Below, in pieces: positions 2,374 to 33,872 of a stretch of DNA of 51,445 bases. Position 1 is the stretch's first letter. Each line of letters starts with the position of its first letter. The position numbers and the translations under genes were made by a program. This DNA is from Nemertoderma westbladi (taxonomy: Eukaryota > Animalia > Xenacoelomorpha), in contig JAUCBJ010005152.1 in assembly GCA_032718475.1 (NCBI GenBank), forward strand, positions 1-51,445, given 5' to 3'. The notes beneath the pieces were generated by a model. The model was not told the DNA's origin. It worked only from the letters and a program-made list of their open reading frames with translations, and searched no databases.

Positions 2374-3565
2374 TGTTCGCGCTTTTAGACCTTTAGCAGT
2401 TTAACCTGCCAATTTTAGGTGTCTTCTAGGTTATAAATCGACTTTAGCCTATAACAAGTATTTGATACACATAAAATTACATTAGCCGTAGCCAGCCTAT
2501 GCGCGACCATTCACCCACGGTTAAGGGAGACTGGATTCGGATGCTCTGACCTTATTGCGGTGTAGACTTACTGTACTATTCGATTGATCGTTAATATAAT
2601 ATCTGACAAATATTATTCACTTTCGGGAAATATTAACAGTTCCTTTAGGACGTGGCGCTCTAAGTATGTAAACAGAGTTATGACTTACACTAAACACAAC
2701 GGGATGGCTAATGATTTTCGTATAAAGCGCATTCTTTAGGAAATGCTTTGTTATCTATCACATTCATGCACAATACCGCACACTGCTGCACACTGATCTG
2801 CCGACCTTAACTAATTTTAGTCATATATAAGGAGAACAGCAACTGACACATGTAGGGTCTATGAAATAGCATTCAATTCACTCCAAAACCACTATAATGT
2901 AAGTCGCAATTGCTACAGGTAACCGGTCTCTCTAACCTTCAGTATATCAAGAAGATTGGGGTTTTATGATTATTTATCGATATTCTCCAAATATAACAAC
3001 ATATCCATCAACTTCTAACAATTAATAACCGACAGTAAATAGCAGTCAAATAATGCGGTGAAAGGTATGTATAGTATGATATGATTTACTGTGATATGTT
3101 ATGCGATTTGTATGATAACAGTTATACGTTTCTATAATCAAAGCCGTTCTAAAGTTTGGCTAAAGTCTGAAACACAGAATAATTCCAAAGCCGATGTTCT
3201 GGGCTCAGGAAAAAAGGTAAACAAAGACCATAATGCATTGCGCGATCTTCCGTAGGCTTCTGTACAAGATAAAATGAAAATCGCTCTGATTGGTCGAGCG
3301 AGCCGAACAAAGAAAGCCAAAAAGCTCCACATCGACATATCAGCTGATAGATGTCGTCATCTGAACTACACTGTATTAAGAGTATTTTGGCGTATTGCGG
3401 CATAAAATGGCTTATTATGTCCGCTAAAGTACACATACAGAAAAATTGCTTTTTATGTCCACTAAAACACCTACACAGTAAGAAAACAGCTTTTTATGTC
3501 CGCTAAAACACCTACAGAGTACTTTGCGGGGAAAATGACTAGCTAGATCCGCAAAAGCCTTTACA
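2374..3565 (-). repeat. 3' LTR of the Bel/Pao element (1192 bp)
   Basis: Colinear with 20394-21585 at constant offset 18020; about 15 substitutions and no indels counted by eye; reads TGTAAAGG...GCGAACA on the minus strand. Confidence 0.96.
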
Positions 3566-3573
3566 CCGCTCCC
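3566..3573 (-). promoter_or_regulatory. Short polypurine tract (GGGAGCGG) abutting the 3' LTR
   Basis: Purine-rich 8-mer directly before the TG of the 3' LTR on the coding strand; short and interrupted by one C. Confidence 0.55.
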
Positions 3574-3643
3574 AGAAAATGGGATTTAATTCTATAAAAT
3601 ATAAAAAATCACAGTTTCTAAAATATAAAAATACTCTAAACAG

Positions 3644-6600
3644 TTAGTCTTTCTTGCGCGGACGGCGTTTACGCAGTTTTTTGAGGCTAGCAAGAGTCCT
3701 TTTCTCTTTGGGGCGAGCCACTTTACTAGGAGGGCTATAACTCCTGGGTGAAGGGTGCAATACAATTGCATCGGAAGGTTTAGGATTACGGTCGGTGTAT
3801 CCGCCGGTCGAGGTACCTGGTTGATCGATATCAACCTCAGTGGAGCGAGGTCTAACGGCCTTTAGAGCGCGTTTTAGGACAGCAGCTCCTACTGGTCCCT
3901 GACGAGTCGTCTGAACGATAGCGGTAGGTGGACCGTGAGTAGTGAGAAACTTCCTCGGTTTAATGGTTCTTTCCAACTCGCGTTCTCGGGCTCGATATTC
4001 GTAGGGCCGTCGATGCACTTCCTGTAACTCTGGATGCGAGTTGATGAACAAATCGCCATACTCCGGGTCTTGATGGATGAAGTTGATCAAGTTATAGGAA
4101 TTAATATCGTTAGGATTAACGTTCCTGAGATATTTACGAACAAATTTGGTTGAAATACACTCACCAACACGCTTCATTAGTTCGTAACTCGGTGTGCGTG
4201 ATTTTTGTTCAACAGACGCGAATAGATAAGGATGGAACGCATAAACTCCTTCGTAGGCGCGTCCAGGGTAATAACGATGGCGTGACTCACAATGTAAATC
4301 CGCATTCGCTTCCCAAGCTCGGATGTAGCGTAGTGTAATCATTTCATCTACGCTTTCCAGATCGCGGTTAAAAGGGCAATCAAAACTGGCATGTCCTTTA
4401 ATTTGACAATGATGGCATTGAGTCATAAATTGGGGGCAGACTGCGAAAATGTGCAAGTTATTGAGTCTGCAATACGCACAATAGATCTCCATCACTGGTT
4501 GTTCATGGAAATAGGAGCAGGGTACGTCTGAGTCCATGGGGGTGAGATGGTCTCTCGATGCGCATAATCAGCAACGTTTTCGAGAAACATAGTTGGCATG
4601 CCGATAATCGTATGCGGTGAGACATTGTGGACCTTGATACCATTCCAAGACGTAGTCGTCGCTGCTCCGGGGCGCTGTAGGCTGAATCTCCTCGGATTCT
4701 AAGCATATTGGTTCGTCTTCCAATTGCATAGCTGAGGTAGGTGCGGCTGTCTCCTCAAGCGAACCCACTGTCTGAACTTCCACGATAGAATAACCCGTGG
4801 GTATTCGAGGTATTTGTATAACAGAGGAATGTAAGTTCTGTATACAAACGTCCTTGAAAATGGTGAATCCAGCGCTGTCTAACTTCTCAGCAGCTGAGTC
4901 TCTTAGGCTGAGCTTAGTCAGAGCGCGGTCCTTGAACTGACTATCAACGTTACGGAACGGAGTCAGAAAGCACCTGAAGCATTCGAAGCGGATGAATATA
5001 TTGTGTTCATCTAGCTTGGCGAGTTTGGTTCCAAGTATTAAGGGATGGGCGCGTATAGTACGACTGCACACATCGGCTAGCCAACCGGCAAGTGTGGCGT
5101 TTTCAAAGATCATGTATATAGCTAAGGAGGGACGAAGTGGAACACTCATGAAGCTATACACGACACCAGGTGCGGTCAATGGTCCATCAAAGTATAATCG
5201 AGAATAATGATCTCCATATACTTGTTGATAGTTGATAGGGTTTCCGACCTTGAAATTCCATCCATATTCTTGAAAGGCAAGATGTCCGATGGAAGTTCGT
5301 TGTACTTTAGTGATACCGCTGGGCGTATTGGCATACATAGTGCGGAAGAAACCTCGGCCTTCTGCCCAGGGAGCGATCAGCTGAGTATCTACGAAAGGAT
5401 ATGGGATATTCTCCATGTTCCTAAAGTCGTTTTGGAGATCTCCATAAACAGCTTAGCAGATTTTAAGGATTCTTTCGTTAAACAACATCTCGAGCACGGG
5501 CTGGGGTAACATCGATCCATCGATACCTATGGCCGGTTTACGCTCGGTGTCAGTGACATAACGCTGCGCGAGTTCGAATTGTCCATGTCGGAGTTTCTTT
5601 TGTATCTCGGTGAGGGTCTCAAAAGAATAATCAATCACGTCGGAACATGCTCGAGTAAATACGTGGGTAGAACCAGCTAGTCCTCGTATATGTATCATGC
5701 GCGTAGTTCCCAGTTCTCCAACCGGAAGGCTACCTTCGTTATCGTAAGTGACAACTCCATACATCTCTATAACGTTAAGAGTTTCGTTCCACTCTTTAGT
5801 GGCGTTTTCTAGGGTCATTTCCACTGGATGCCACAAGGTGGTGCATTCGCTAGCGTTAGGTAGATCTCTATACTTCAAATACTGTGTAGTATATGTTTCT
5901 ACATCTCCATATCGTTGTATTCTCTCCTCCTCGAATAACACGTCAAGATTCCAGTGGACTAATCGAGTTTTCATAAATCCATCGAGATTATACGGAGGTA
6001 TTATATCTTTCTCTATTCTGGAAACATTATAGGGTTTTCGGAATGAGTTTACTTTCACTAACTGATCCAGATGTTTCTGCAGTTGTTTGAGTTCGACAAG
6101 ATCGAGAGGATTTATTAGTGGTAGAAACCTTAGACTATGTGTAGGATCTTCCGGTTTTACCATGTAATGTTGAGTTAGATTGACATAATAAGGGTGATCT
6201 TTGATCCCATAAAACGAGTTCGGTAAAGGTCTAGCGCATATGTTGACCTCGTGTACCATACGACAGACAAGATCAGCTCTATTGTCCGGAGGTTCTACGA
6301 GTATACCATCGACACGAGCGGCCTCGATTGGCGGACGTTGTAACATAGGAGTGTCAGCGATAAGATCCCGAGATCTTAGGTTGATATCAACCGGTTGAGG
6401 TTGTGCCGTGGCAAAGAGTTTGTCTCTGAAATGGGGAACCATTGAAGGATGAATGATGGTTTTAGAATAGAGATCAGTCATAAGGATTTGAGCTTCTGGC
6501 TGGGCTAAAGCTGCTTCTTCTCTCTCATCCATTTCTATGTGTTTCTCCTCGAGCTGATTTTCCTCCGCTTGTAGTTGTAAACGCTCGTCTAGGAACTCTT

Positions 6601-7884
6601 GTAGAGAATAGGTTCGTCCAAGTTCGATGTCTTCCTCGAGGTTCTGGATTTCTCGGTCGAACTGGGGTAAAGCTAATTCTTTCACCGCTTGGACTTGTTG
6701 CTGCAATTTGCGTTTCTCTAAACAATCGTAGGTTCCTTTTCCGATCTTCTGCCGAATAGCGTCTAACGCGTTTCGTACAATGCTCTCCTCGACTTCGGTA
6801 ACGGGGTTAAACCGGGACGATTGTACGGGTTGAACGGCGATATTAGATGCCCGCGTCCCAATCCGGCTAGGTAGGAAGGGCGAATATCTAGTGAGCCCAC
6901 TACCGGAGTGCCACCGATTAATTGTTCGGGTAACACAAGATCTTTAAATAGTGAGTACAGTTCAGGGGGATCCGTTATACTATTAGGATCAAGCGTTTGA
7001 GGTCTCACTAAGGAATGAGGAGGTCTGACCGAGTATTCCGGAACTCTGATCATGGGTTTATTTAAGGATCGTTTGAGTCGAGCGAGCGTAGGTGATACGT
7101 CGAACAGGTTTCGTTCGAAACTCCCATAAGTATATCGTGTAAAACTGTGTTTAGCGCAACGTCTCCGCGGATGTTTATGTCTTTCCGTTTGCTGATTGGG
7201 TCTAGGGCATTCGTCGCAGTAATACCAAAGATGCATGTCCTGCAGGGGAAACGCGGGTGATCGTTCTCCAGTTTTACAATATTCCTCCATCTGTTCGAAG
7301 CTATCTGGGACGACAGGTAGCGGTCGATCGGCGGTAAGATACATCATAGTGAAATAGAGCCGTTTGAGTTCTATCATAGGGTCATGATGTATACCTTGAG
7401 GATATCGAGTTTCTAGATTTTGTTGACTGGCAATATTGAGATATGTTTCTCTCAAGAATTCCAGATAATCGTTGAAGTCACTGCGTTTATCTGGCTCTTC
7501 AACGTCTTCTCTTTCGAGTTGGTTTCGAATAGAATTATCGTGTTCTATTCTCGGTTTATCGTTCCAACTCCGCTGGGTATGAAATTTAAATAAAACCATT
7601 TCCCTTTCGGTGTCTACATCGTCCGTATCGTGTAAATCGATAGGATGGCCAGTAGTTAAGAAGTCCATATACGTACCATTACGATGCGTATAGCGAGCGG
7701 TGAATTTTCTATAGTCCAATTCACGCGTAAGTTGTTCCTGGGACATTGGCGGTTTGTTATAATGACCATCGTCCTCCGTAGGAGTTGGACTAGCGTCGCC
7801 GCGTATCAAGCTATCAACAAACGCTTGTAAAGGTAGAGTATATCGCTCCCTGATACCAAGATCATCTTCTATCAACTCAGTCAT
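3644..7884 (-). pseudogene. Accessory ORF of the Bel/Pao element (~1400 codons reconstructed): unknown N-terminus, DEDDy 3'-5' exonuclease, CCHC knuckles, basic tail
   Basis: ORFs 5453-6706, 4568-5416 and 3644-4537 are in one frame separated only by single stops (TAA 5453-5455, TGA 4568-4570); that frame stays open to 6943, overlapping ORF 6763-7884 in the -1 frame. ExoI VVTYDNEG, ExoII LPQPVLEMLFNERILKIC*AVYGD..FVDTQ, ExoIII PLRPSLAIYMIFE; CHHCQIKGHASFDC knuckle. Confidence 0.8.
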
Positions 7885-7959
7885 AGCTGCTATATGAGTT
7901 TATCAATATTATAATGAGTTTATAATTAGGCTAGCGGGCGTCGCTGCCTACCCCTCACG

Positions 7960-8083
7960 GCCCCCGGACAGCGCAAGATCCTCAGCGCCGATGTACCGTC
8001 GTCGCTGTGTTTTTCGCCAAAGTAGTAGCTACACAACGACAACGATAACCAGCGCGAGTCACTCCACTGTCCGTCCCAAGGGC
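7960..8083 (-). other. Long GC-rich RNA stem-loop just upstream of the accessory ORF start
   Basis: CGGACAG (7965-7971) pairs with CTGTCCG (8067-8073); 7981-8010 pairs with 8031-8058 around a 20-nt loop; the non-Watson-Crick positions in the inner stem are C:A on plus, i.e. G-U on minus. Confidence 0.7.
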
Positions 8084-8708
8084 TAAGATTTACTTCAGGT
8101 TCTTACTGCAGAGGTAGGGCTACTTTCACAATTGCGACTCGCTACTGTAAACACACTTTAGTAGTAACATTCACCTATAAACGCACAAATTCCACACAAC
8201 TGTCACAAATTGTACACATTCGGGCCATTTGTCCGTTAGTCAAGTGCCTTCCAGAATGCCACGTTATTATTATGTATCCTTGGATACTATCAGTGTGCTA
8301 TTTATTCCCTATGCTATTCAATGGGGCAAGCTTTCTATTGTTCTTTTAACTCGCTTCTAATTCTAGCGTGGTTGTTGCTATGGTGACATTATGGAAAGCT
8401 AGCGGTAGAATTAGGGTAATTCCCATGCATACAGATCTGGGATGCTATTTAATAGTAATTCTTTAATTGTCAATATCCCCTTTATACATGATTTTATGAA
8501 TTTTATCGGCTATTGACTATATATTGGAGATTCTCGCACACTAATACACTTAGTAGGGTGAATCTCTGCTCCCATGATTTATTAATTAATGAATTTTGGG
8601 AATATTATAAATTGTATAAAATAACAATTTATCAAGTTCATTAAAAGAGATGAATTTAAATTTATTCCCGTAAATTTTATTATTTATCCTTAAAACAGAC
8701 ATAATTTT

Positions 8709-9068
8709 ATTCCAGAGCATGTCTGGGGACTAGAATCCTTAATTCTAGGAAATTTGTCCTTTTAAGAGTATCGGTAAGTGCTACGATATCTTAATAGACT
8801 AGAATTTTAAAGGATCTAAAATTTTACAGATTTTAATTTATAGATTTTCTAGAGTTAACTTGTAAGTAGTTACTCTATTGTATCTATTTGACAGATTTTA
8901 TAAATATTAATAGTTAATATTTAAGATGGGCACTGGTTTATTCCAGAACATGTCTGGGGACGTTAACCATTGATTCTAGAATTTTGTCTTTTAAGTATAT
9001 CAGTGGGTGCCGCGATATCTTAATCGACTAGAATTACAGATGGTCAAAGGGTTTAACAGATTTATTTT
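8709..9068. repeat. Diverged ~130-bp direct repeat pair in the pol/accessory-ORF spacer
   Basis: TTCCAGA(G/A)CATGTCTGGGGAC...ATTCTAG...TTTGTC.TTTTAAG...CGATATCTTAAT.GACTAGAATT at about 8709-8840 and 8939-9068. Confidence 0.75.
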
Positions 9069-9590
9069 GCGTTTTACGCTACTGTTAAAGGGACATCACG
9101 CTACTATATGTATTATTTAATATACGGTATGAGAGCAATATTGCAAGAAGCAATGTCAGTAAGAAGAGGCAAGTCGTTTCCAAGGTCTACCCAGAGCTTG
9201 GTTTAGCCGAGACACGAGGATCTGAATTTTGCATTCCTAATACTCTACTTACCAATAATACTTGAATATAGTAGGAGCTTTATTGTACTTTAATAAGTAT
9301 GGACATTTCATCTTACTGTAGTCAAGTATTTATAATATGATACGGACAGTAAGGAAAGAGAAAAAGAATTATTTCTCGCCGTCGCACTAAATATATAATA
9401 TAATATAAGTAAGTAAGTAATAAACGCTAATATATATTGCACTAATCTACTAAATAATCGCTAAAATAACAATCTACTAAATAAAATTAAAGAAAACGAT
9501 TATAATAAAATTACATAATAATACATACATAAATATAAAAATAATAAAAATATATGAAATAATATAGTCACACACCCACTCCAGACGCTG

Positions 9591-12500
9591 TCACGTTGGG
9601 GAGACCCTGGATGTTGGTCGGATTTGGGAGGTGGTCGTGGGAAGAGTATCTTGCATTCCATAGTTTCCGGAGAGTTCTCTGTCTCTTTCCAGTAAACATA
9701 AACGACCAACTGGGCGATTGAGCTGCTGCGTCTCGAAGACAATTCCCAGTTTCTTAAAGATACGTCGCATGACGACGAGTTCTACCGATCGCACCAAACC
9801 GTCATCTGAGATATGAGTCTCGATGATACGACCTGTCTGCCACCGCTTACGTGGAAGATCTGACTCCACAATAAGGACCATGTCTCCTGCGCTGACGTTT
9901 TCTTGCTGCGCAAACCACTTAGTTCGAAGTTGTAGCGTAGGCAGATAATGTTTTTCGAAATGGTCAGCGAAACGACGGGATAACAACTGCATAAGTTGCC
10001 AAGTTTGCCGGCAGTATTCGTCCCCGTCCGTGATTTCCGATCGTGGGAGCATGGCTACAGGTTTCTTCAGTAGGAAGTGCGCGGGTATTAGCGCTTCCAG
10101 GGAATCGGGACTCGATGAGACTGGCATAAGCGGTCTCTCGTTGAGATAGGCGGCGATTTCCTCCATTAACTTCCGCAAAAGTTCGTCGGTGAGATACGCG
10201 CGGCACGGCACTATAAAGTGAAATGCGGTCTTCACGCTCCTGATTAATCTCTCCCAACTTCCTCCCCACCAAGGGGCGTCGGCGGCGTTGAAGGTCCAGC
10301 TAGACGCTGTTACCCTTAGCTGATCGTCCACCTGTCTTTGGTTCCAATCTTTGACGTAAGCCTTGATTTCATTGTTGGCACCAATGAAGTTCGTTCCCTT
10401 ATCAGATCTCATCGTGTTACTAGTTCCAAAGCGAGCGATCTGTCGGCGTAAGCTCAGTATGAAGCTGTTGGTAGATAGATCATTCACCATATCGAGATGG
10501 ATAGCTCTACAAGTCATACAGACAAAGATGAGACACCATCTCTTGACTATAGTCCTAGCACGATATACTTCAATAGGGCCAAATAAATCCACACCGGTAT
10601 TTGTGAAGGGTGGTTCATAGAAGCTTACTCGTTCCCTAGGTAATTCTGCCTCTCGCTGTGTTAAAGGCCTACTGAATGCTTTCCTACAGGGTATGCAGTT
10701 CCTAAGAACTTGGTTCAGAGCTCTACGGGGTTTATGAAAATAATAGCGAGTTCGAATTTCGCTAAGAACTCATTCTCTACCAGCATGATAAAGCTTACTG
10801 TGAACATCTACAATCATCTTGATTTGTATTTCAAGATTTCTAATGAGTATGGGAAACTTAGTGTCAAAGGATAATGGAGCATTAGTTAGTATTCCTCCAA
10901 CGCGTATTAACCCATCTATCATTGTGCTAGAGAAACGATCCCTTAAGCGCATCTGTGGATTTCTCAACAACAGGAAATATTTATCAGAATCCTCATAGCA
11001 TTGCAGGAGTCTCAGTATCTGCTTATTGGTTTCTTCATGCTCCTGGTAACTGATCTTCTCCTTCAGAAATCTGTCTGATATCTTGTATTTGGGAAGATAT
11101 TTAACAACATGTACCTGCGCAGATGTCAGTGGAGCGGTATCACTAGTGGTCTTCGTCCTGGCGTAGTGATGATGAAAACATCGCTTTAAATATGTAACGG
11201 CCTTACAGAGCCGATTCCAGGAACTATAGTGATGTATCGCTCTCTGCAGGAGGGGTGAGAGTCCCTGCGAGACGTCTGGTGTTCCAGATTTCCAATCTCT
11301 CTCTCTGATTTCCACAACAGACTTATTTGTGGCTGGGGTTTTTGGATCCAAAGCGTCGTCTCCGGAAGTGTGTAGTACAGACAGATCTATCACGGGTTTA
11401 AATAACTTCGATTTACTCGCTCGGGTTTTAGGTTTGACTTTCTCCGCTCCCTTGGCTTGTCTAATCTCTGCCGTGGTAAGATGAGGAGGCCATTCATCCT
11501 CTTCTTTGCTTAGGAAGTCGGGTCCACCTAACCAATCTGGAGTATCTAAACTCCGAGCAATCAATATAACTGGGCTAATAAATCCCAATGGATCGAAATA
11601 AGTGCTCAGGATACTTAGACAAATCCATTTAGTCCGAACTGGATTATCTCGCTGTTTTAGCTGGAAAAACAGGATATCTCTCTCTGTGTCCCATTTCAAA
11701 CCAAGCGTCTTGGTTTCTGGAAGATCGTCCTTGATTAGGTCTAGATCTTTAACTCCTCGGTCTTCTACCGGGATCGATTCCAGAAACTCACGGGAGTTGC
11801 TGGTGAATTTAGTTAATCGAAATCCACCTCTTTTCAAGCACTCTACCGTTCCTTTGGCAACATCAATGGCTTCTTCCACCGATGGGAGGGACTATAAATT
11901 GAAGTCCATGTATATATCCCATTTGATGTTGTCGATAACCTCTTTGGAGAAGGCGTCCCGGTTGTCATCAGCAGTGGTACGCACTACTGAGCAGGCGTTT
12001 GAAGGGCTCGAGATGATCCCAAAAGCCTGGATGGTCATCCAGTACTCCACCGGTTTCTGGTTGAGGTCTCCTTCAGGCCACCACAGAAATCGTAGGCTGT
12101 CTCGATCCCTATCCACCGCCTTAACTTGTAAGAGCATGCCTTCTATATCGGAGGCGAAAGCGATCGAATATTGTCGTAATCTTAAGAGTATTCCCAACAA
12201 GGATTGGAGTAAGTTGGGTCCCGGCAACAACTCGGAGTTAAGGGATTGGCCCATGTAGAGGGCGGAGCCGTCAAATACTACCCGGACTTCGTTGGGTTTA
12301 CCGGGTTTGGGAACGTAATGATGTGTTAGATAGTACGTTCTCTCAGTTATGGGTGTTTCTTCCGGTACTCGCTCCGCATATCCCTTGTCAATGAATTTCT
12401 TCAACTGGGTCTTGTACATCTCCTTAGCTGAAGCATTTGCCATAAGGCGTTTATGTAGTTGCGCAATTCTCTTCTCCGCCAAGAGTCGGTTGTTTATAAA

Positions 12501-15500
12501 ATTGGGTTCTCGCCGTCGGAAAGGCAGACCAATCTCATATCTACCTTGATCTTTAAGAAAACGTGTAGTTGTTTCCTGTATCTGCTTGGCTCTTTCTTCT
12601 TCTACCGATAGGGCCTTATCGTAGGAATTGGGCTCTACAGCCTCTTGAGTAAAGAATCGTACGGCGTGTTCATCACGAGTCTTCGCGTTGTAGCGATCTA
12701 TCACTTCATTCAGTTCGTCGTTGTAATCGACTTGTCCCGCTGGATGAATGAGGTGACATAAGTTCACTTGGTTTTGCCAAGTTTCATTTTCCGTAAGGAG
12801 GTCGATGGTATTCTCCTCATCGAATAGTTGGTGGATATCGTCATTATCTGAGGAGTATGGTGTTCCCTCAGGTGGGTTGTCTCCCTCACTGGTCTCCTCT
12901 TCCCCTGGTAGACTCGTTCTTTGGGTAGCCTTTCCATGAAAGTTCTATGGGAAGGTCCAGTAAAGTACCAACCTACTCTAGTTCTTCCCGCATAGGTTTG
13001 TAATGGTTGCGGTTGAGCAGGCCGTTTCTCCAATGTCTCAAGCGCCTCATGCGCATTTTGGCCGATGAGTATTTGTACTCCAGTGTAGTCTGTGTTGAAT
13101 CTAGGTATCTTATGCTGTTGGGTGAAATCGTCCTCATCCCAGTTATAAGGTTCCACTTGGCTGGTAGCGAAGTTCTTTATCGCCACCATTTTTACTGACC
13201 TTATGCTGTGTTCTCCTAGTTCATCCTGGGGGGTGGACAACGCGCCTACATAGTAATCTGTAGTTACTGTAGATTTCCAAACCTGCATAATTCCTGAAAG
13301 GTTCAACTTAGTTCGGAACTTGGGTTGTCCAGCAAAGATGTCTTCGGCTAGTTCTTTGTCGATGAATGCTCCTGTGCTGCCGGAGTCAAGGAGGGCGTTC
13401 ACTATATAGCTCTTTTCTGACCCGTGGACTCTCAACTGCACTACGGGAAATTCTCGGATTCCTACGTTGGAAGTTGGTGCTTTCCAAGATGGTTGTCAGT
13501 CAGGAATAGTTAGGGGGAGCTCACTATCGGTTTCCTTCTCATACGTAAGTGCTCGATACACTGCGGTATTTATTAGGTAACAGGATTCGTTTTCGTCGGA
13601 GAATTCATCCGTATAGAATCCTTCCATCTCAGAACTTTGGTCAGTGTCGTTCACATCACTGAATTGGACATGTAGTTCGGACTCACTTACCTGACTCGGG
13701 CTGTTTCTTTCGAATTCAGTGTGCCTCAAGATATGATGTTTCGCGCCGCACTTAGCACACCTTGCTTCGGAGTAACAGGTTCGCAGTTAGTGTCCTTGTC
13801 TGAGGCAATTATAACACAACCGCTTATTCCACATGACTTCACGTCTATCTATTAGGGATTTCTTTAGGAATTCATCACACACACTTAAACAGTGGGGCCC
13901 GTCGCACAGCACACATTTTGGTTTGATGTTACTTACCTTACCTTGGGTAACGTTGTGCACACTCGTTCTTTCCTCGGGCTTTCTTCCATGAACTCTCTTA
14001 GGAGACGTAGGAAGAGTTTTTCTTACCTGTTCTCTCATGTCACTGGTTCGAGACTTGAATTTACTTACGTCTTTAGGCGCTTTGTTGACATAGTAAGATC
14101 TTTCAGTGTCTTTCCCGCTGTCCTCCTCTTGGGAGGCCTGGCTTTCGCCGTCATCTGTATAACACGCTGGTGTTACCTTTCTCCTAGAAACGGTTTTCTC
14201 ACTTACCTTATTTTCCGGCGTCTTCTCTCTGGACTGCTTTAGGAGCTGTAATTTTACCTCTCCATCTAAGAATGACATGAGATCAGCCATGGTAGGGTCT
14301 CTCCGTTGTTGTTCCATCATATATAACACTTTCTTGTCCCAGCGTGTACCTACTCCACCCTTTGGTAAAGTAGATGCTACGGCTCCAATATCCATAGAAC
14401 TCTGATATTCATGAGACTTACCTAGCCAATCTAATTGTCTACAGATCTCCTGAATCTCATCGGAAAACTCTATAATCCCGCTGCTAATGAACTTTCGGGG
14501 CGCTACCAATTTTGCATACAAATACCTAGCTATGTTATTCCTATTACCATACCTGATGTTTAGTGTATTCCAAACTTGTCTTAATCCATCTGGATGTCCA
14601 ATAAACTTTAACGCCATTAACTTGGGAGGTCCTTCCAAACACTCGATGAGGAATCTATGTTTCTCTCCATTAGATAGTACAGAGTTCTGTATGTTATCTT
14701 TGTAATATTCATTAAAAGGTAACCATTTCATCTCATCTCCATTGAACTTGACGATCTCTCCCACCTTTACCGCTTGACGGGCTTCGGTTCTAGCCATTTG
14801 ACGCGTAAAACTTTCTTGGGCCATCGTATTATTTAATATCGAGTTATCGGTATATAAATTTCTCGGATTATTATCAGGTCTATATGGAATATCATTGTCA
14901 ACAGGTTTATAATTACCTTTAATAGGGTTTACTATAGTAGTTTCTACTTCACTAGCAGTATAGATGCGTGTAGGCTCCACACCTTGCGCATGAAATACTT
15001 CAGACCTAACAGGTTGACACATTGTTACAGGGGGTGTTGGTATACCCTTTTTTAGATTTACTAACTTATCGCGTTCTAACGTGATACTCTGCTGCACTTC
15101 CTGCAATTCTAACCTACTCTCTCTTACTGTTCCCCTTAACTGTTGAACAGTCCCCTCCAACTCTCGGACCTGCTGGGAGGAGCGTGCCTGATTCTAATCC
15201 ATCTGCCTGAGGAGAATATCCATCCCCCGCCATCGTTCATCCACCCACTCGACCGCCGAAGCGGGAGCCGCCAACATAGTAGCGGGTAGACGAGGGACGA
15301 CGGGTGACAAATTGTTAATGTCTCGCTCGGCGTCCAGGACCGGAGTTGACTGAGGAACTGTCCCACTGGATACAGGTAGTTTAGTACTGTGCAAAGGGAA
15401 TTTAGAGTTAGGTTCTGGAAGTACAGGGGTCTCTATCACAGAAGGGGTGGCTTCGAGAACAGGCCTAATTATTTCAGGCTCATCTACTATAGTAGGGAGT

Positions 15501-17209
15501 CTTTCTACTCTAATAATTTGGTCTGTGGGTTCTGTACTACCTAAGTCTGTGCTAGCTAGTTGCCTTCTCACAGCTGGGGGCAAATTAGGCAATTTCTGAC
15601 GGTGGGGCGTTCTTCTATGCCTACTGGAACGAGATCTATTTCCTCCGCCTTCAGGATCTGTTGTATCGCCTTCATCAGATGATGTAAATCCCTGTCTTTT
15701 GGGAGTAGATCGACTTATCATCTGCCACTGACTAGCTGTTCTCTGTTTATCTATGTAGTCTTGCTTCTCTTGAAGATTTTCCAACTCTAGTTGGGTGGTC
15801 TCTTCAGACGCCCTCCGTTCTGCTTCTGCCACTGCTACCTTTCTTTCCGCTTCGGCCGCTTTTCTTTCCGCTTCGGCCGCTGCCATTACCGCTTTTCTTT
15901 CCACTTCGGCCGCTTTTCTTTCCACTTCGGCCGCTTTTCTTTCCGCTTCTGCCGCTGCCATTGCCGCTTTCCTTTCCACTTCTGCTGCCTTTCTTTCCGC
16001 TTCTGCCTCTGCCGCTGCCGCTGCTGCTGTCTTTCTGTCTTCTATACATTTTTTCTTTACTTGTTCTTCTTGAACCCTAGCGATACGGCTGCTTTCATCA
16101 AATTTAGCTTGGTTCGCAGCTAACATTTCCGCATCTATTGCGTCCAACACAAACTTGGCTCCTTCACTATTAGGACGAAGTCCAGCCAGCTGTCTCCTCA
16201 ACTCTTCGTCACCTAGAAATCGTTGATAGTCTGACAGATAGATGTCAATAGCGTCCTTCTTCTGAGGTTTCTCTGCTGTCACTTCGCTTTCCACTTGAGA
16301 AAAGGTAGCGTCTGTTGATTCTCCGTGGGTTGAGCGCTCAGCCAGCTGAAATTTCCATTGGGTCGTTCCTTGAACCTTGAGACTCACCCGTTGGAACCAA
16401 GTCTTGACGGCAACTTGCAACGATGTGTCTTGGGTTCTCTTTGAAGCTTCCTCAAAGGCTGATAGGAGTAGTCTGATTCTTAGGATTCTTACTCGAACTT
16501 GATAAAGCAGCTCTCCCTGCTCTTGAGGTCCTTGATGTTGATGAAACAGTTGTTCCTCTAATCGCTCCAAAGAGCTGAAGAATCCCTGTACATATCCTGC
16601 TGCCGACCTCTTCCACACAGCTGGATCACTAGTGTCTTTTGTCACTCCCATCCTGTATAAGTCCTCCCAGGCAGCTTCCGATAAGTTAAACGGGAGTCCG
16701 GGTCCGGGGAAGTTCCATTGCGTCTCGACAATAGACTTCAGTTCCTCCCTTGTGTATCCCGCATAACTGTCCTTGGTCGATCGCTTACTTCTCGCCCAAT
16801 CGATTTGGTGTTCCTCCACCGCAATCAATACCCTAGTGAGTACGGCTGCAGGAAGAATGAGATGGGGATCCGAATAAACCGCATCTGCCATCTTTGCTCC
16901 GCGTTCGGGTGTCAGCTCTACAGTATTTGAACTACTGGAGCTATCGGGCCGCTGAGAAATAAGTTCTCGGCTCGGGTATTGCTGCTGTTTAACAGCTGCT
17001 TCTTGGTCTCGCTTGACTTGAGCCCGAGTGCCTATGATAGACCTACGGTGTTTGACTAGCCTAGGGTCTGATACTACTACTGGAGGGATGACCTTTCTTA
17101 CAGTAGGAGGGGAGTTGAACTTCGGTCTCAAACGTTCCGCACTCCTATCTGGGTCACAGATGGTTGTATCTAGGAGACTGTCTGACAGGTTTTGCTTTAG
17201 GTCAGACAT
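9591..17209 (-). pseudogene. gag-pol: Bel/Pao gag-pol polyprotein, disrupted (5 in-frame stops, 1 frameshift, RNase H region deleted)
   Basis: ATG at 17209; in-frame stops at 15194, 13787, 13496, 11892 and 10770; frameshift near 12770-12850. Gag knuckles CVLCDGPHCLSVC, CYNCLRQGH*LRTC, CAKCGAKHHILRH; protease LLDSGST; RT RVVFDGS, LLPGPNL, SDIEGMLLQV, FGIISSP, with YMDF in place of YxDD; integrase H-H-CIPC, GVDLFGP, RSDKGTNF, WERLIRSVK. Confidence 0.93.
15815..16030 (-). repeat. Coding tandem repeat (21-nt core) in gag giving (AAEAERK/AAEVERK)n
   Basis: Repeated GCTTTTCTTTCC(G/A)CTTCGGCC on plus; reading frame preserved throughout; Ala/Glu/Arg/Lys-rich helical pattern. Confidence 0.85.
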
Positions 17210-17339
17210 GTTTGTTTGTACAGTTGTATGCCTACTGCTATAATTACAGTTAAAGCAAGTCTAGTAATTCAGTATCAACTGTTAGCCTAGTAATTAATTA
17301 CCGATATCGTTACTCTATGTAACGTGATATATATACAAT

Positions 17340-17605
17340 ATATTAGAATACCGGTATACACTTATAGTATATATAAGTATTATTACGGATAGGATATTAG
17401 GGATCGTCACAGAATACCGGTATATAATTTCAGCGCAAATATATAGATATATAATAAGCCTAACGTGAATACCGGTATACAGCTTACACTTATAGTATAT
17501 ATAAGTATAATTATAGACTAGAATTAATTACAGAATACCGGTATATATTTTCAGCTTAAATTTATAGAAATAAATATAATAAGCCTATCGTAAATAACGG
17601 TACGT
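17340..17605. repeat. Degenerate tandem repeats in the 5' leader of the Bel/Pao element
   Basis: GAATACCGGTATA recurs at ~60-bp spacing with alternating CACTTATAGTATATATAAGTAT and TTTCAGC..AAAT..ATAATAAGCCTA blocks (~120-bp dimer). Confidence 0.7.
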
Positions 17606-19068
17606 CAATTATTTTTAAAATAATTGAATTTCTGAATTTTAGGGTTACTTAGTTACTTTACTTTACTTTATTACTGTTATTTAAGCAGTAGTCCAACTGA
17701 TATTAAGACCTAATTGTTGTATGACAGGCCTACTATTTTATAAATCGGTTTGAGTTGATTTATAATATATATATACCCGTTTAATGGGTTTTTTGACAAT
17801 ATTTGAAATAAATGTTATTATTTCTGATAAGGTAAGGAGTCACTTCACAGAAGCTGAATGCTCTCAGTGTAGTGCTACTTATTGGACACTAAAACAAATA
17901 ATTCTAATTTACTAAGTTACTTATTACTACAAATTACGTACAATTACGGGGTGAGATTACAATCTCTAAATAAACACAAAAAATTACACGTACAATTTTT
18001 AGGGATAATTTTACAAGAAATCTACAAACCAGCCTAACAAGGAGTTAGAATTTCTGGTTATTACAAACGGACAGGATACTTCGGTATTTGAAAATAATAA
18101 AGCAGTAGTAAATATATTGCGTTGTCTAGATAGGAAAATACCACCGTCTGACGAGTTATAGTCTCTAGCTTTACAGCTCTATAAGTACTACGTTATGTAC
18201 CCGGAGTGTTCCTACCTAGAAGTTAATTACTGCAGCCAACCATAGCTAACGTGCCTATTAACCACTTTACAACACAAATATACTGCCTACACACTAATTA
18301 CCTTCGGAAAGCACTGTACACTAAACCCTAAATTAAGTACAAGTACTTATACAACAAATAACCAGCAGTTAAAAATACTTGTACAGCTAAAAGAACCACG
18401 GTATCTGCCGGAGTGACCAGAGCATAAAATTTACCTACGCCAAACAGCCCTGATGTAGTACCGGGGTTAATTTAACTATATCGGTATGTATAACAAGCAC
18501 AATTACTGTAGGAATAAACTTGGGGTTGTGTATGTTGCGAATAATCGCATAAACTCTGAATAATAAATATTACGCTACCCGTACAGACTACACAAACAAA
18601 ATACAGACCAAACGCTGGCAGACTACTATCAAGCCTAAATAAACCACAGTATATGCAGACTCCGAAATGGTTAGTTAGTATGCATTCTAACCGAGTAGTA
18701 CGACTTATTCTTTCGGGGGGGGGGGGGGGATTTACCTTACAGCACTGGATGCCCCCATGTTCCTAACTAGTACTTTATCGGACATACACTCTACACACAC
18801 TGCAATCTCTTCAGACTTAACAACAGCCAGACAACAATCCAGCCTACAAATTATTTGTACAATCTGAGCAGGCTTACACGCCTTCTGCTCAATATTAACT
18901 TACAGATAAATAAAACTGACAGAAATAAGTAAAATCCCAATAAAAAACCAGGGCTGCAGTCCCTGATTAAATATCAAGACCTACCGGTATATAATTATCA
19001 CAATCGAATAATACTGATGTACCTGTACTGCGGTAAGTACCGGTTCGGGTGGTTAGGTAGTTAGGCCT

Positions 19069-20318
19069 TGTACGCGCTTTTGAAGACCTTTAGCAGTTTA
19101 ACCTGCCAAAATTTATATGTCTTTTGGTTTATAAATAGACTTTAGAAGTTGACAAATATTTAATACCAATAAACACAACATTAGCAGAAGCCAGCCTAGT
19201 GCGCGTCCATTCACCCGCTGGATATACCCGGGAGACTGGATTCTGAGGGCTTAGATTATTATTGCAGTGTAAGCTTACTGTATTATTCGATTGATCGTTA
19301 ATAAATAATTTCTGACTAATATTATTCACTTTCAGGAAATATTAACAGTTCCTTTAGGATGTGGCGCTCTATCTAGGTAAACAGAGATATGACTTATACT
19401 AATCACAACGGTAAGTAGGTAAGGCTTATGATTCACGTATGAGGCGCATTCTTTAGGAAATGCTTAGTTATCAATCACAATCAGGCACACTACCGGTAAC
19501 ACACAATACTGCTCACTAATTTGCCGACCGTCAATGAATTTTATCATATATAAAGAGAACAGCAACGGACTCATGTAGTGCTTATCAAATAGCATTAAAT
19601 TCACTACAAACCACAACAATATAAGTCGCAATCGCTATATATAACCCGTCTCTCTAACCTGTAGTGTATCAAGAAAATTGGGAAATTTGGGTTCTTTATA
19701 AATGTTCTCCAAATAATATTCAACCAACTAATACAAAATATGACAACAGTAAAAAGCATTAAGACGGTAGGTTAAGATATGATATGACAAGATGTGACAA
19801 GACTGCACTGATAACAGTTATACGCTCTATAATTTAAGCCTACTAATGTTTCTTCTAAAGTATGAAACGAATTGACTCTAGAGCCGGTGTTCCTGGCCTA
19901 GATAGCAACAACACAACGGTATCCCAAAAAACAGTAAGACTGAACACTCCTAGTATGTTCGGCCGAATATCTCCACATCGACAGAAAAAATCGCTCTGAT
20001 TGGCTTAAGCTAAACAAAGAACTACGTGTCCAATGGCCGTTTCCATGTCAGCAACCAGCTGTTAGATGTCATAATCTGAATCATCAACTCTAAGCTGTGT
20101 AAAGGTATTTGGTGCATTGCAGGTTTTTTGCCTTACCATGTCCGCCAAAACACGTATATAGAAGAATGACTTTTATGTCCGTTAAAACACCTATAACGGT
20201 ACCTTGCGGGCGAGGGGAATATATATATAGTTAGAGAGTCTTTTAGAGTATTCCAGCGCCTGGGGGAAACTGGATTGCGAAGCAAAAGGGCCAGTTATAT
20301 CCCACAGAAGCTTTTACA
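19069..20318 (-). mobile_element. Solo LTR of a related subfamily nested in the leader of the Bel/Pao element
   Basis: TG...CA ends; own 5-bp TSD GGCCT (19064-19068, 20319-20323); colinear but clearly diverged similarity to the host LTRs (e.g. GACCTTTAGCAGTTTAACCTGCCAA, GAAATATTAACAGTTCCTTTAGGA, AAAATCGCTCTGATTGG). Confidence 0.92.
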
Positions 20319-20382
20319 GGCCTACTGGTTACCGGTCGACCGGTACTTTTGCCTTTATTGCCTACGTTGCAATAAAGAAAGA

Positions 20383-20393
20383 ATAACTGTTAT
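20383..20393 (-). promoter_or_regulatory. Candidate non-tRNA primer-binding site (ATAACAGTTAT)
   Basis: Abuts the 5' LTR; no TGG start; exact reverse complement of minus-strand ATAACTGTTAT inside the LTR (21135-21145). Confidence 0.45.
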
Positions 20394-21585
20394 TGTTCGC
20401 GCTTTTAGACCTTTAGCAGTTTAACCTGCCAATTTTAGGTGTCTTCTAGGTTATAAATCGACTTTAGCCTATAACAAGTATTTGATACACATAAAATTAC
20501 ATTAGCCGAAGCCAGCCTATGCGCGACCATTCACCCACGGTTAAGGGAGACTGGATTCGGATGCTCTGACCTTATTGCGGTGTAGACTTACTGTACTATT
20601 CGATTGATCATTAATATAATATCTGACAAATATTATTCACTTTCGGGAAATATTAACAGTTCCTTTAGGACGTGGTGCTCTAAGTATGTAAACAGAGTTA
20701 TGACTTACACTAAACACAACGGGATGGCTAATGATTTTCGTATAAAGCGCATTCTTTAGGAAATGCTTTGTTATCTATCACATTCAAGCACACTACCGCA
20801 CACTGCTGCACACTGATCTGCTGACCTTCACTAATTTTAGTCATATATAAGGAGAACAGCAACTGACACATGTAGGGTCTATGAAATAGCATTAAATTCA
20901 CTCCAAAACCACTATAATGTAAGTCGCAATTGCTACAGGTAACCGGTCTCTCTAACCTTCAGTATATCAAGAAGATTGGGGTTTTATGATTATTTATCGA
21001 TATTCTCCAAATATAACAACATATCCATCAACTTCTAACAATTAATAACCGACAGTAAATAGCAGTAAAATAATGCGGTGAAAGGTATGTATAGTATGAT
21101 ATGATTTACTGTGATATGTTATGCGATTTGTATGATAACAGTTATACGTTTCTATAATCAAAGCCGTTCTAATGTTTGGCTAAAGTCTGAAACACAGAAT
21201 AATTCCGAAGCCGATGTTCTGGGCTCAGGAAAAAAGGTAAACAAAGACTATAATGCATTGCGCGATCTTCCGTAGGCTTCTGTACAAGATGAAATGAAAA
21301 TCGCTCTGATTGGTCGAGCGAGCCGAACAAAGAAAGCCAAAAAGCTCCACATCGACATATCAGCTGATAGATGTCGTCATCTGAACTACACTGTATTAAG
21401 AGTATTTTGGCGTATTGCGGCATAAAATGGCTTGTTATGTCCGCTAAAGTACACATACAGAAAAATTGCTTTTTATGTCCACTAAAACACCTACACAGTA
21501 AGAAAACGGCTTTTTATGTCCGCTAAAACACCTACAGAGTACTTTGCGGGGAAAATGACTAGCTAGATCCGCAAAAGCCTTTACA
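20394..21585 (-). repeat. 5' LTR of the Bel/Pao element (1192 bp)
   Basis: Near-identical to 2374-3565; upstream of gag on the minus strand; followed by TSD AATGT. Confidence 0.96.
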
Positions 21586-23309
21586 AATGTGTATATAATG
21601 GCACTAGATGGTGTCAAAACCCTTAGTAAAGCATCGTCCAACCTAAATGGTCAACATTATACCGCAACCAACTTTATCAATAAAATATGGTGTTTTGAGC
21701 TAAAAATCGGTAAAATAAGTATTCCATAAAGGCAAAATTCATGCATGCATCAACAACAAATCATATTTCATGAAATGTAGTTTTCAAAAAGACATCTCAA
21801 ATGCCAAGTCGCAATCTCCAATGCTCAAATGCCAAAAGTGCCACAAGTAGGATTACAAAATAGTGCAGTACAGTCCATATCTCATTCTAGATACCGTTTC
21901 TCAAACTGGGTACCTTTTCTCTTACCTCACTCTTACTAACTCAAACCTGTCTGGTTTACTCAAACCCAACTCAAACTCGCGTAACCACCCACTGTGCACT
22001 GTGTAGCATTCATACAACAAGCTGTCTGTGTTTAATGGCCCACTCGCTTCTGTTATACTCTGCCTACGGGTTTGATGGTCTCCTGCTGTTATAACATTCC
22101 CTAAACTTGATTTGTTTGTGTGTAATTAACTCCAGTAGACAGTGAGAATTAAGTTGCAGACTCAGTGACTCAATTTATTTTTAAATTTCAGAATAAAAAA
22201 AATATATGCTAAATTATAAACTGACGATTTATTAATTTTTTATTACATTTATTAAGTATGTATGACTCATAACATATTAACGTTATTTTACATTAAAATA
22301 TAACCATATAATATAACCAACCAATTTTATAAATTTATTTTAATGTCGCGTATATTTCGCTAATGTTTCTAATGTTTAACTTTAATGTTTTACTAATGTT
22401 TAATTCTCTATTACATCGTCAACACAATTATTCGCAATACATCTGGGTGTGGGTATACCGGGCAAAGGGGCCAGAGAAACGAAACCTCTGTAATTATAGA
22501 CAGGGCCATATTTATGGGAGGGGGGGGGGGGGGGGGGGGTGTTGCGAGGTCTAATTCTTAATTAACCAGTAGATTTTTAAACTGATATGTCTTGTAAGGC
22601 ACCAAATTGACATCAAACAGACAGATAACAGAGCAACAATTTCCCACAACAATATGATCCCAGAATTAAAACTTTCTCTACAAACAGACCGAGCCAGTGT
22701 GGTTTAGTTAACAACATACATTTAGTAAAGCCCACAAAGGAACTGCGTGATTGACATGTCTTTTATGAGACACACGCCAAGCCGGCCTGCCCAGCTTACC
22801 GGCCGGCCAAACATCAGACAGAGGCCCCTTCCCCATGTGGTGCCTCACTACTCAACCAGAGTAATTATCCATCCCGTACAGGAAGAGTAATGCTGAGTAT
22901 GGCACAGTTGGAAGTCAACCTAACTCAAACCATGGCGCCAGACTCTAGTTTGAGTTAGATTGAGCTGGCTGCATCTTTCTGATTTCTCAACTCTTACCCC
23001 AGTCTTACCTACTGAAATTCTCCGTTGACTATCATTAGTAAAAGGTTTGAGAAATGATACCCAGTTTGAGAAATAATATTCAGAATGAGATAGGGACTGT
23101 ATGGTTGTAGGAGTATAAGTCCTTTCGTCTTGTATTGAACTAATAATAATGTATTGTTGGTGGAGTTTCTTCAAAGAAGCCGAACTTCCCCACTGGGCCG
23201 TTGATGTATTTGAATTTTGAACGTTTAGTAGAAGGTATAAAATATGGTTGCGACTCCCATGTTTGTAGGAGTATAAGTATCGGGAGAATAAATGGAAAAA
23301 TTATGTTGC

Positions 23310-23363
23310 GCTTCTTAAAAGTTAATTTGTTATCATCGGATAACAAATTAACTTTTAAGAAGC
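23310..23363. repeat. Perfect 25-bp inverted repeat with 4-nt loop
   Basis: GCTTCTTAAAAGTTAATTTGTTATC-ATCG-GATAACAAATTAACTTTTAAGAAGC. Confidence 0.9.
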
Positions 23364-23399
23364 TAAATTAATTAATCAAAAACTAAAGGTAAGAATTTA

Positions 23400-26961: not shown

Positions 26962-28089
26962 GTGGGGCCTTCGCGCAGCACGTGAAATGAGTTAATGCTA
27001 AGTATCAACTCGAAAGGATTATAAAAACATAGGAGAAGATTTTCCCGGAAAACGTTAACCCTCTAGCGGGAGACTGGGTAACTGAAGAAGGAAGGATTAG
27101 TTTCCCTACAAAGCCACAGCCTATGGTCTATTACATATCTACCAAGTTTCCGATTGACGGATCATAAATAACGAAATGTTGGAAGGTTTTCACTTTCATA
27201 CATTTAGCCCTCTAGCGGCATATTAAAGAACTACGGATCGATCACCTTCCTCACAAAGACGAGGCATGTGGTCTAGTACATACCGGTACTGTATATTCCA
27301 AAATTCAGCTTAAATAGATTAAGATCAAGGAATTCGCGAAGGTTATCACTTTCCTACATTTCGCCCTCTAGCGGCAGACTCGAAAACTCCGGACCGATTA
27401 CTGTCCACACAAAGACTTAGGATGTCTTCTAGTACATATATGACAAGTTTCAGCGTAATCAGATCATAAACAACTAAATGGAAGAATAATTTCACATTCG
27501 GGACATTTCGCCCTCTAGCGGCAGACTGGAGAACTGCAGACAGATTAGCCTCCTTTGAAATTTACAGCTAATGGTCTAGTACATACTTCCCAAGTTTCAG
27601 CTTAAACGGATTAAAAGCAAAGAAATGGGTGGCCATTTAATGTTTAGACATGTGGCCCTCTAGCGGGAGACTGGAAAACTTCGGACCGATTACAATCCAC
27701 ACAAAGACTCAGGATGTCACCTAGTACATATATGACAAGTTTCAGCGTAATCAGATCATAAACAACTAAATGGAAGAATAATTTCACATTCGGGACATTT
27801 CGCCCTCTAGCGGCAGACTGGAGAACTGCAGACAGATTAGCCTCCTTTGAAATTTACAGCTAATGGTCTAGTACATACTTCCCAAGTTTCAGCTTAAACG
27901 GATTAAAAGCAAAGAAATGGGTGGCCATTTAATGTTTAGACATGTGGCCCTCTAGCGGGAGACCATTGCACTGATGGTGTCTGAAAGTCTCTTAAAAATC
28001 TCAACTTTTGCTCATATTGATACCTACAAATTTTCAACTTGGCAGCTTTAAATCCGACAAAGTTATTAGCATGTCAAAATCGTAACGAC

Positions 28090-28289: not shown

Positions 28290-28391
28290 TATGAGTCATC
28301 CATCAGCTGGTTTGCAACTAGCCTTTCAGTCAACTTAGATAAGTATATTAGATTCGAAACTGGTCTAAAGTTCTTTAATAGGGTTGTCCTT
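28290..28391 (-). mobile_element. CR1/L2-type LINE RT fragment
   Basis: LKNFRPVSNLIYLSKLTERLVANQL matches the NYRPxSxL..LSK..E non-LTR RT motif. Confidence 0.7.
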
Positions 28392-28794: not shown

Positions 28795-29149
28795 AATTAT
28801 ATCTGGTTATATATATATATGATTATTTCTATCAATTTCTTTCCGAAATAATCGTAAGATCCGGATTTATTATTGTTTTGTAAATCTCAAATTTTGTTCG
28901 TGTTTGAGGTTTATTTATTACACGAATCTTCACTGATTCAATAGAAAAATCATTAATGTTGATTGTAATTGAATTTTGTAGTAACTTAAGACACAGTTAT
29001 GGGTTTCACCCAGACCGTTGACCAGACCTCAGACCTTCACTAAGACCGTTTTCATGTTCCCGTCCTCACTAAAAGGTCCACCGAGATAAATATATTCAGT
29101 ACAATGTAAAATAGTCGTTTCCCTCGCTGAAATCGGTTTTCGATCACCT

Positions 29150-33840: not shown

Positions 33841-33872
33841 CCAAGGAACGGTAGCCGCTTGTCGATAAACAC

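Follow-up and report, generated by a model that had tools for sequence, protein, structure and literature searches.

Known systems and the window element

Exonuclease third genes in LTR retrotransposons have already been published. In Juno, Vesta and the Terminons of bdelloid rotifers, an RNase D-like DEDDy gene is located 3' of pol, in the env position, and PMC5408684 describes ORF3 products with conserved catalytic residues (motif DEED), no transmembrane segment and no coiled-coil domains, and does not contain the term CCHC. The element presented here, identified in a window of 51,445 nucleotides from Nemertoderma westbladi (the window being the whole stretch of DNA that was analysed), very probably harbours a gene of the same kind in the same position. 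As far as the two can be compared by description, its host is a Bel/Pao retrotransposon, its motif reads D-E-D-E, and its protein of about 1,410 residues, unlike the rotifer ORF3s, also has a basic tail, a part that resembles a coiled coil, and CCHC knuckles. Within their genome, rotifer copies evolved nearly neutrally according to that report, whereas the window family is under purifying selection.

With regard to BEL/Pao elements, the survey PMC3118150 describes the gag-PR-RT-RH-IN order, the DUF1759, Peptidase_A17 and DUF5641 domains, TG...CA LTRs and a 5-bp duplication, all of which are found here, but a usual length of 4.2-10 kb, compared with 19.2 kb for the window element. Such third genes as are known, few in number, code for env glycoproteins, and the word exonuclease does not occur in that survey. 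According to PMC3985635, Peptidase_A17 is the Bel/Pao RNase H. Another likeness concerns Tf1, Tj1 and sushi, in which the primer-binding position is complementary to the element's own LTR and not to a tRNA; PMC4600332 and PMC6317226 assign this self-priming to Ty3/gypsy and some plant copia lineages, and mention no accessory nuclease.

The enzymes of the PF01612 family (RNase D, Rrp6, Nibbler, WRN and Egalitarian) share with the window protein the ExoI DxE, the ExoII D followed by DTQ and a candidate ExoIII PL....Y, RNase D being the closest by sequence. The window protein differs from them by scores below curated cut-offs, the Glu in ExoIII, insertions, the absence of a detected HRDC domain and the fusion to knuckles. 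Rrp6 itself works with the knuckle protein Air2.

Architecture of the element and of its third gene

As judged from its LTRs, 5-bp target duplication, domain order and marker domains, the element is a Bel/Pao LTR retrotransposon (Table 1), of 18.0 kb when the nested solo LTR is subtracted. The two LTRs share 98.7% identity (15 differences, no gaps, K2P 0.013). In gag-pol, the Pfam matches to DUF1759 (E 1.1e-10) and DUF5641 (E 9.4e-21) are both above cut-offs, those to the Asp protease (0.0054), integrase H2C2 (0.0062) and Peptidase_A17 (E 0.026) are weaker, and the RT, which has no Pfam match in the window, was identified by eye. The spacer between integrase and third gene is presumed to act as a putative promoter or splice acceptor.

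Table 1. Coordinates of the element's features in the window
Feature	Position	Strand	Remarks
Target-site duplication ACATT	21586..21590	(-)	5 bp; second copy 2369-2373
5' LTR	20394..21585	(-)	1192 bp, TG...CA
LTR 11-mer, candidate self-primer	21135..21145	(-)	in 3' LTR: 3115-3125
Primer-binding position	20383..20393	(-)	11 nt, near-palindromic; exact reverse complement of LTR 11-mer
Solo LTR, related subfamily	19068..20318	(-)	nested in 5' leader; own 5-bp duplication AGGCC
gag-pol (Gag DUF1759, protease, RT, RNase H, integrase)	9591..17209	(-)	several stops and frame changes
AT-rich spacer, integrase to third gene	7885..9590	(-)	1.7 kb
Third gene	3644..7884	(-)	ATG 7884 to stop 3644; about 1,413 codons; 3 breaks in window copy
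Overlap with frame change	6763..6943	(-)	
E/Q-rich stretch	6500..6706	(-)	coiled-coil-like by eye
Putative RNase D-like DEDDy domain	5030..5800	(-)	
In-frame stop TAA	5453..5455	(-)	private to window copy
Three Cys/His clusters	4376..4582	(-)	last is a canonical CCHC zinc knuckle
Basic C-terminal tail	3650..3682	(-)	like a nuclear localisation signal by eye
Purine-rich tract	3566..3576	(-)	short, ahead of 3' LTR
3' LTR	2374..3565	(-)	

Two features of the leader were overlooked in the preliminary description. One is the solo LTR, identical to the element LTR at 912 of 1142 aligned bases; a tandem LTR was ruled out by its own duplication. The other is the self-complementary primer site. The LTR 11-mer lies inside a 15-nt run identical in the 80%-identical solo LTR, and its 11-nt complementarity is reached by none of 1000 shuffled LTRs and by 2 of 875 other non-coding starts. 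No tRNA-type primer site was found, with TGG, absent from the first 75 nt, as the sole criterion, and the locus shows the Tf1-type combination of a site complementary to its own LTR without a tRNA site. In comparison with Tf1-type elements, the candidate 11-mer is near-palindromic, and since it also overlaps a TATAA, it may be a repeated DNA motif.

The third gene was proposed to result from rejoining four minus-strand ORFs into about 1400 codons, which is confirmed. The stop-to-stop frames span 6763-7899, 5453-6943, 4568-5452 and 3644-4567. The last three have a common frame and are separated by the single stops TAA 5453-5455 and TGA 4568-4570, while the first is read in another frame and partly coincides with the second. 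Followed in the sense of the element, the gene stops 78 nt short of the 3' LTR. None of the four pieces has a transmembrane segment (highest 19-residue hydropathy, 1.31) and no signal peptide is visible by eye; the earlier view that this is not an env gene is borne out, and an env glycoprotein identity was rejected. Almost certainly, the third gene is a genuine gene of this Bel/Pao family.

The RNase D-like domain and the zinc knuckles

The Asp, Glu, Asp, Tyr and Glu residues named earlier are all present at the coordinates given: ExoI contains D 5741-5743 and E 5735-5737, ExoII D 5438-5440 followed by DTQ, and ExoIII, preceded by PL, Y 5114-5116 and E 5102-5104 (all minus strand). The last acid is Glu instead of Asp (YxxxE), and an insertion of about 30 residues is present between ExoI and ExoII. 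The motif spacing, formerly given as evidence for a DEDDy domain, is weak alone, the pattern being matched by 71 of 5000 shuffles; the exonuclease assignment is supported by homology, both to a protein designated P0002 and to the RNase D profile.

P0002 is the sole relative among 1.84 billion proteins (representatives), with an E value of 3.4e-5. It displays the same order as the third gene product, namely exonuclease, linker and CCHC knuckles, and 63 of 239 aligned columns are identical (26%), including all five catalytic residues, compared with 10 out of 24 acidic positions that the window protein has in the alignment. The Asp-to-Glu change in ExoIII, not noticed earlier, is common to both proteins. 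Its significant homology to PF01612 members extends from ExoI to ExoII, and 25 of 30 ESM Atlas neighbours of P0002 are PF01612-set clusters. Word-seeded protein searches yielded no relative at 605-1925 aa or below 605 aa, P0002 as query retrieved only itself, and a DNA scan revealed no related locus in metagenome, viral or prokaryote contigs. Phage and plasmid matches were discarded as noise.

The PF01612 check suggested for the window protein gave no Pfam exonuclease match, even with stops read through, and P0002 scores 11.9 bits against the curated cut-off of 23.6. Pfam and PDB sequence searches with the window domain found no exonuclease, a PHROGs search nothing useful, and no HRDC domain was detected. 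In NCBIfam, RNase D provided the sole matches of the window protein (E 0.0035 and 0.031; 16.7 bits). The RNase D profile scores 20.3 bits on the window domain, versus at most 3.2 in 300 shuffles, and hhalign gave 93% for the ExoII segment against RNase D and 0.2% for the reversed alignment, the significant similarity covering about 47 residues around ExoII. Among the profiles built, which are all bacterial, that of RNase D is the only one to score the window domain; those of short bacterial PF01612 proteins (two groups) and Pol I gave -1.9 bits, 0.5 bits (equalled by 3 of 300 shuffles) and no score. A two-sequence profile used in a blind search of 301 genomes returned 14 matches, of which 11 were RNase D.

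In multiple alignments with the family, ExoI is in register in 18 of 20 settings, ExoII in 20 of 20 and ExoIII in Y/D register in 6 of 20, ExoI and ExoIII of the window protein being placed by alignment only. The predicted ExoI DxE and ExoII D fall in DEDDy register. An unbiased two-sequence fold reached a pLDDT of 32, whereas the alignment-fed fold (pLDDT 64) matches RNase D with an E value of 4.2e-4 and a TM of 0.48, a circular result given that the family alignment was chosen; its neighbours include Nibbler and Egalitarian, with the same circularity. Taken as a whole, a DEDDy fold is very likely present in the third gene product, and the domain is probably active as a nuclease because the five catalytic positions are kept at 26% identity.

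The C-terminal CCHC knuckles had also gone unnoticed. The first Cys/His cluster is interrupted by the stop 4568-4570, and the region resembles retroviral nucleocapsid and Air2 (E 0.064 for the latter). Matches from an Atlas search with it, all below 0.9, are leads only.

Other copies and the possible role of the protein

Other copies are known through short contigs from sequencing runs, not through a whole genome. At the stop 5453-5455, all depth differs from the window copy in four of four runs (48, 33, 4 and 2 contigs), and the frame change is absent from the three listed contigs that span it (runs X3 and X4), which differ in length; the stop 4568-4570 has no entry among the best 40 of 1583 differences. 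Since neither the stop at 5453 nor the frame change recurs in other copies, a point that the preliminary description wished to see verified, these breaks look like decay of the window copy. A selection test had likewise been suggested. In 33 variant rows, which are the best-supported ones and not a random sample, differences common to copies comprise 18 synonymous versus 3 non-synonymous changes, and those private to the window copy 2 versus 10 (Fisher p 1.6e-4), showing that the third gene is under purifying selection among copies. Within 4700-6300, 10 of 10 listed contig pieces are gap-free at 80-87% identity, compared with 0 of 3 in the spacer. The family is very abundant, and depth, which does not equate to copy number, is very high over the whole stretch. 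A variant without 4722-7521, exonuclease included, accounts for 2918 of 2953 of the depth there in run X4 (one contig) and is also found in run X5, possibly an RNA run (one contig); the exonuclease domain is therefore dispensable in cis.

As the best of the readings, we tentatively propose that the RNase D-like and CCHC protein of about 1,410 residues encoded by the third gene works in trans and shortens the element's own RNA in the 3'-to-5' direction, a target that is possible rather than probable. In the weakest steps of this scheme, the knuckles would grip element RNA and the nuclease would trim its 3' end back to a duplex. The likeliest duplex would be the 11 bp formed by LTR-derived RNA on the primer-binding position, and trimming would complete a tRNA-independent primer. 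In Tf1-type self-priming, the cut is made by RNase H. Against the scheme, PMC4600332 and PMC6317226 describe this type of self-priming without a gene of the present kind. The tie between protein and primer consists in their co-residence in one element alone. It seems unlikely that this Bel/Pao family has given up tRNA priming and supplies a machine of its own for primer maturation, in which the knuckles would anneal an LTR-derived RNA to the primer site and the RNase D-like domain would trim it to the 11-bp duplex.

Judged nearly as likely as trimming of own RNA, if still doubtful, is a protein translated from its own message and directed by its basic tail to the nucleus or nuage, where it would trim or destroy host piRNAs or siRNAs and let the family reach high copy number. 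The basic tail, the 1.7-kb spacer setting the gene apart and the very high depth (again distinct from copy number) are consistent with such counter-silencing, and variants with the internal deletion propagate in its absence, which is what one would expect if the domain acts in trans. A silencing role has been raised for the rotifer DEDDy ORF3s in PMC5408684, but the same paper reports no clear copy-number link in rotifers, and the Nibbler, Egalitarian and EXD-type matches come solely from the circular, alignment-fed model. That model also lists Egalitarian in favour of a catalytically weak or dead adaptor, Egalitarian- or EXD1-like, whose fold and knuckles would bind element RNA and whose coiled-coil-like part would couple binding to transport or germ-line targeting. 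The ExoIII Glu in both homologs, the 30-residue insertion and the large non-enzymatic regions point the same way. Dead exonuclease derivatives, however, are usually without catalytic residues, and here all five positions are identical against 10 of 24 acidic residues overall, making an adaptor rather improbable.

Least probable of all is a passenger, whether a host gene fragment, a nested element without benefit or a non-exonuclease domain. Deletion variants do thrive without the domain, no contig of other copies joins the gene to pol (the compared stretch ends at 9400), and P0002, the sole homolog, is known as a protein without genomic context. Such a passenger is nevertheless difficult to reconcile with purifying selection, with depth continuous over spacer, gene and 3' end in 30 of 30 bins across four runs, or with a gene that lies in the element's sense so close to the 3' LTR, has no further piece elsewhere in the window and is flanked by none of the top 20 direct and 25 inverted repeats listed.

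Why 3'-5' exonucleases occur in several unrelated retroelements has been a question since the rotifer report. Rotifer elements are rare and show no selection signal, whereas the window family is abundant and its gene is under purifying selection; together, the deletion variants and a candidate substrate, the self-complementary primer site, make this question testable. The protein family is almost missing from databases, with one relative among 1.84 billion representatives. Surveys that set an upper bound of 15 kb (PMC3118150) would poorly serve a Bel/Pao element of 18 kb. Were the reading of a self-encoded primer-maturation machine true, no other retroelement would be known to devote a nuclease to the production of its primer, and a function would be supplied for the exonuclease third genes of retrotransposons.

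Element architecture and primer site

The element carrying the third gene has two LTRs differing at 15 positions without gaps, and ACATT is found on each of its outer flanks. Its gag-pol matched DUF1759 (E 1.1e-10), DUF5641 (E 9.4e-21) and, weakly, protease, Peptidase_A17 and the integrase zinc finger; it is interrupted by several stops, so that the window copy of the element is dead. The gag region upstream of the protease frame spans ~1,140 codons, and gag also harbours an Ala/Glu/Arg-rich repeat. Some 75 bp past the 5' LTR, the leader has been invaded by a solo LTR of a related subfamily; after subtracting it, the element measures 18.0 kb, whereas the usual Bel/Pao length is 4.2-10 kb in the available text of PMC3118150.

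No TGG occurs within 75 nt past the 5' LTR. The first 11 nt there are the exact reverse complement of a segment inside the LTR, a complementarity reached by 0/1000 shuffled LTRs and 2/875 other non-coding starts. This LTR 11-mer is near-palindromic, overlaps TATAA and falls in a 15-nt run common to the 5' LTR and the solo LTR. The available text on the self-primed Tf1 and Tj1 (PMC4600332, PMC6317226) describes a primer site complementary to the element itself, the same arrangement as seen here at the DNA level. The window element may be self-primed.

Features of the element and other repeats in the window
Feature	Position	Strand	Description
LTR retrotransposon (host of third gene)	2374-21585	-	Paired LTRs and target duplication
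LTRs	2374-3565 and 20394-21585	-	1192 bp each, TG start, CA end
gag-pol	17209-9591	-	Bel/Pao marker domains, order gag-PR-RT-RH-IN
gag repeat	15800-16050		AEAERK units
Third gene	7884-3644	-	ATG to stop, ~1,413 codons
Solo LTR in 5' leader	19068-20318	-	Own 5-bp AGGCC duplication; subfamily 80% identical
Primer-binding position	20383-20393	-	Complementary to LTR 21135-21145 (read 21145-21135)
27-bp repeat array	23300-25150		Minus-strand long open frames of 9-residue units
Tandem arrays	27182-27963 and 28338-28823		Units of ~146 bp and ~30 bp, respectively
Small young LTR element	31867-34417		525-bp repeats 2026 apart, sharing 99.4% identity; a single frame, beginning inside repeat, is gag-like (Retrotrans_gag E 2e-4; CCHC); without pol
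Three 15-bp repeat clusters as inverted arms	42588-44290		Within larger inverted repeats 40771-40934 and 44896-45061; together look like nested DNA-transposon ends

Selection on the third gene and decay of this copy

The preliminary description had rejoined four frames, across two stops and one frame change, into one gene with five exonuclease residues, and all of these were recovered at its positions. Its view that the gene is not env also holds, because no piece has a transmembrane segment. Three public runs of organism A and one of organism B supplied contigs, which were aligned to 3566-9400; 30/30 bins are covered in each run. At the TAA stop (5453-5455), the entire depth differs from the window in 4/4 runs (48, 33, 4 and 2 contigs), and the frame change (within 6763-6943) is absent from all three listed contigs aligning across it, where lengths differ. 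The TGA stop (4568-4570) has no row among the best 40 of 1583 differing places.

Among these best 40, 34 lie inside the third gene, and excluding the six outside and the stop codon left 33. Differences common to only some copies comprise 18 synonymous and three non-synonymous changes, against two and ten for those private to the window copy, i.e., with at least 97% of depth differing from it (Fisher p 1.6e-4, for rows that are the best supported and neither random nor independent). Considering the 32 listed contig pieces of about 56,000, 10/10 inside 4700-6300 are gap-free (3,276 bases, 80-87% identity), as are 0/3 in the spacer. From the absence of the TAA stop and frame change elsewhere, the substitution pattern and the gap-free pieces, it follows that selection maintains the third gene within the family and that the window copy has decayed; the frames thus belong to one real gene.

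The exonuclease-like domain and the knuckles

The selected gene encodes a DEDDy-like domain and knuckles. Its product comprises, in order, 370 residues with no match in a Pfam domain search, an E/Q-rich stretch, the nuclease domain, a linker, three Cys/His clusters, the last being a canonical CCHC knuckle, and a basic tail. The bare DEDDy spacing, also matched by 71/5000 shuffles of the domain, is suggestive and insufficient by itself. Two word-seeded protein searches found no relative of the protein; when all 1.84 billion representatives were searched exhaustively, one emerged, P0002 (648 aa, E 3.4e-5), a singleton and unnamed protein from a 9449-nt ENA contig. It carries an intact DEDDy-like domain, a low-complexity linker and three CCHC knuckles, in the same order as the third-gene protein. 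Pairwise alignment places GVVTYDNE with GILSIDVE, GDL with ADL, VDTQ with LDTQ and YMIFEN with YIYCEN; D, E, D, Y and E are the same in both, and 63/239 columns are identical overall. For the P0002 knuckles, matches were to retroviral nucleocapsid (E 1e-4) and, at a weak level, to Air2, as would be expected of any CCHC pair.

With regard to the family, RNase D provided the sole NCBIfam matches of the window protein (E 0.0035 and 0.031) and 11 of the 14 matches of a two-sequence profile in 301 bacterial genomes. An RNase D profile of 25 sequences scored 20.3 bits on the window domain (maximum 3.2 in 300 shuffles), and hhalign against RNase D gave 93% (reversed control 0.2%). These four tests are not mutually independent, because all rest on the same ~47 residues around ExoII. 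P0002 aligned with the family profile from ExoI through ExoII, and 25 of its 30 ESM Atlas neighbours belong to the PF01612 set (score 0.94; 34% of the cluster's members carry the family). A two-sequence fold prediction failed (pLDDT 32). A second, from 27 bacterial family members chosen for giving the expected ExoIII register, reached pLDDT 64; with this pre-selected input, RNase D was the sole match below 0.001 among 164 (E 4.2e-4), and Nibbler, Egalitarian, EXD2 and WRN were also matched. This model indicates compatibility with a DEDDy fold, nothing more. The initial DEDDy call is supported by the P0002 residues and the RNase D matches, and ExoI and ExoII were in register in 18/20 and 20/20 multiple-alignment settings; against it, Pfam and PDB sequence searches gave no exonuclease match for the window domain, and ExoIII, placed by the pairwise match with P0002, ends in E, not D, and was in register in 6/20.

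Possible function and relation to other elements

One contig in each of two public runs (X4 and X5) joins 4721 to 7522, a form accounting for 2918 of 2953 depth in X4; frame arithmetic suggests that the junction leaves the N-terminus and the knuckle region in one reading frame. The form may be either a deletion or a state predating capture of the domain. This form counts against the middle of the third gene being needed in cis. Further forms without the middle were seen at 3806-6532 and 3993-6543.

Judging from its sequence, the protein is probably an active 3'-5' nuclease, which we infer to work in trans; a catalytically dead adaptor appears unlikely, and a gene that is a passenger very unlikely. 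With regard to the target, we tentatively propose the element's own RNA, onto which the knuckles would guide the nuclease, and in which a 3' end would be trimmed as far as a duplex, most obviously that of the primer; such a putative role is plausible, if somewhat short of probable. Counter-silencing, another putative function, is only slightly less likely, and the basic tail and family abundance fit it equally well as they fit trimming of the element's own RNA.

An exonuclease domain was reportedly noted by Malik et al. in 2000 in a nematode Cer-type Bel/Pao element; if this is right, the Bel/Pao setting of the third gene is not the first. As in the window element, a DEDDy third gene is present in the Juno and Vesta LTR elements and Terminons of rotifers, according to the available text of PMC5408684, PMC6431247 and PMC5718144. 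In literature comprising largely open-access main texts, including PMC11662393, PMC3985635, PMC3118150, PMC13524379 and PMC554778, we found neither a Bel/Pao element with a DEDDy third gene nor an exonuclease-knuckle third gene. DEDDy third genes were already known in other LTR elements, and what is new here is the exonuclease-knuckle form in Bel/Pao: a large accessory gene that selection maintains in an abundant family of oversized elements, whose reality as a gene is well supported and whose function is predicted.
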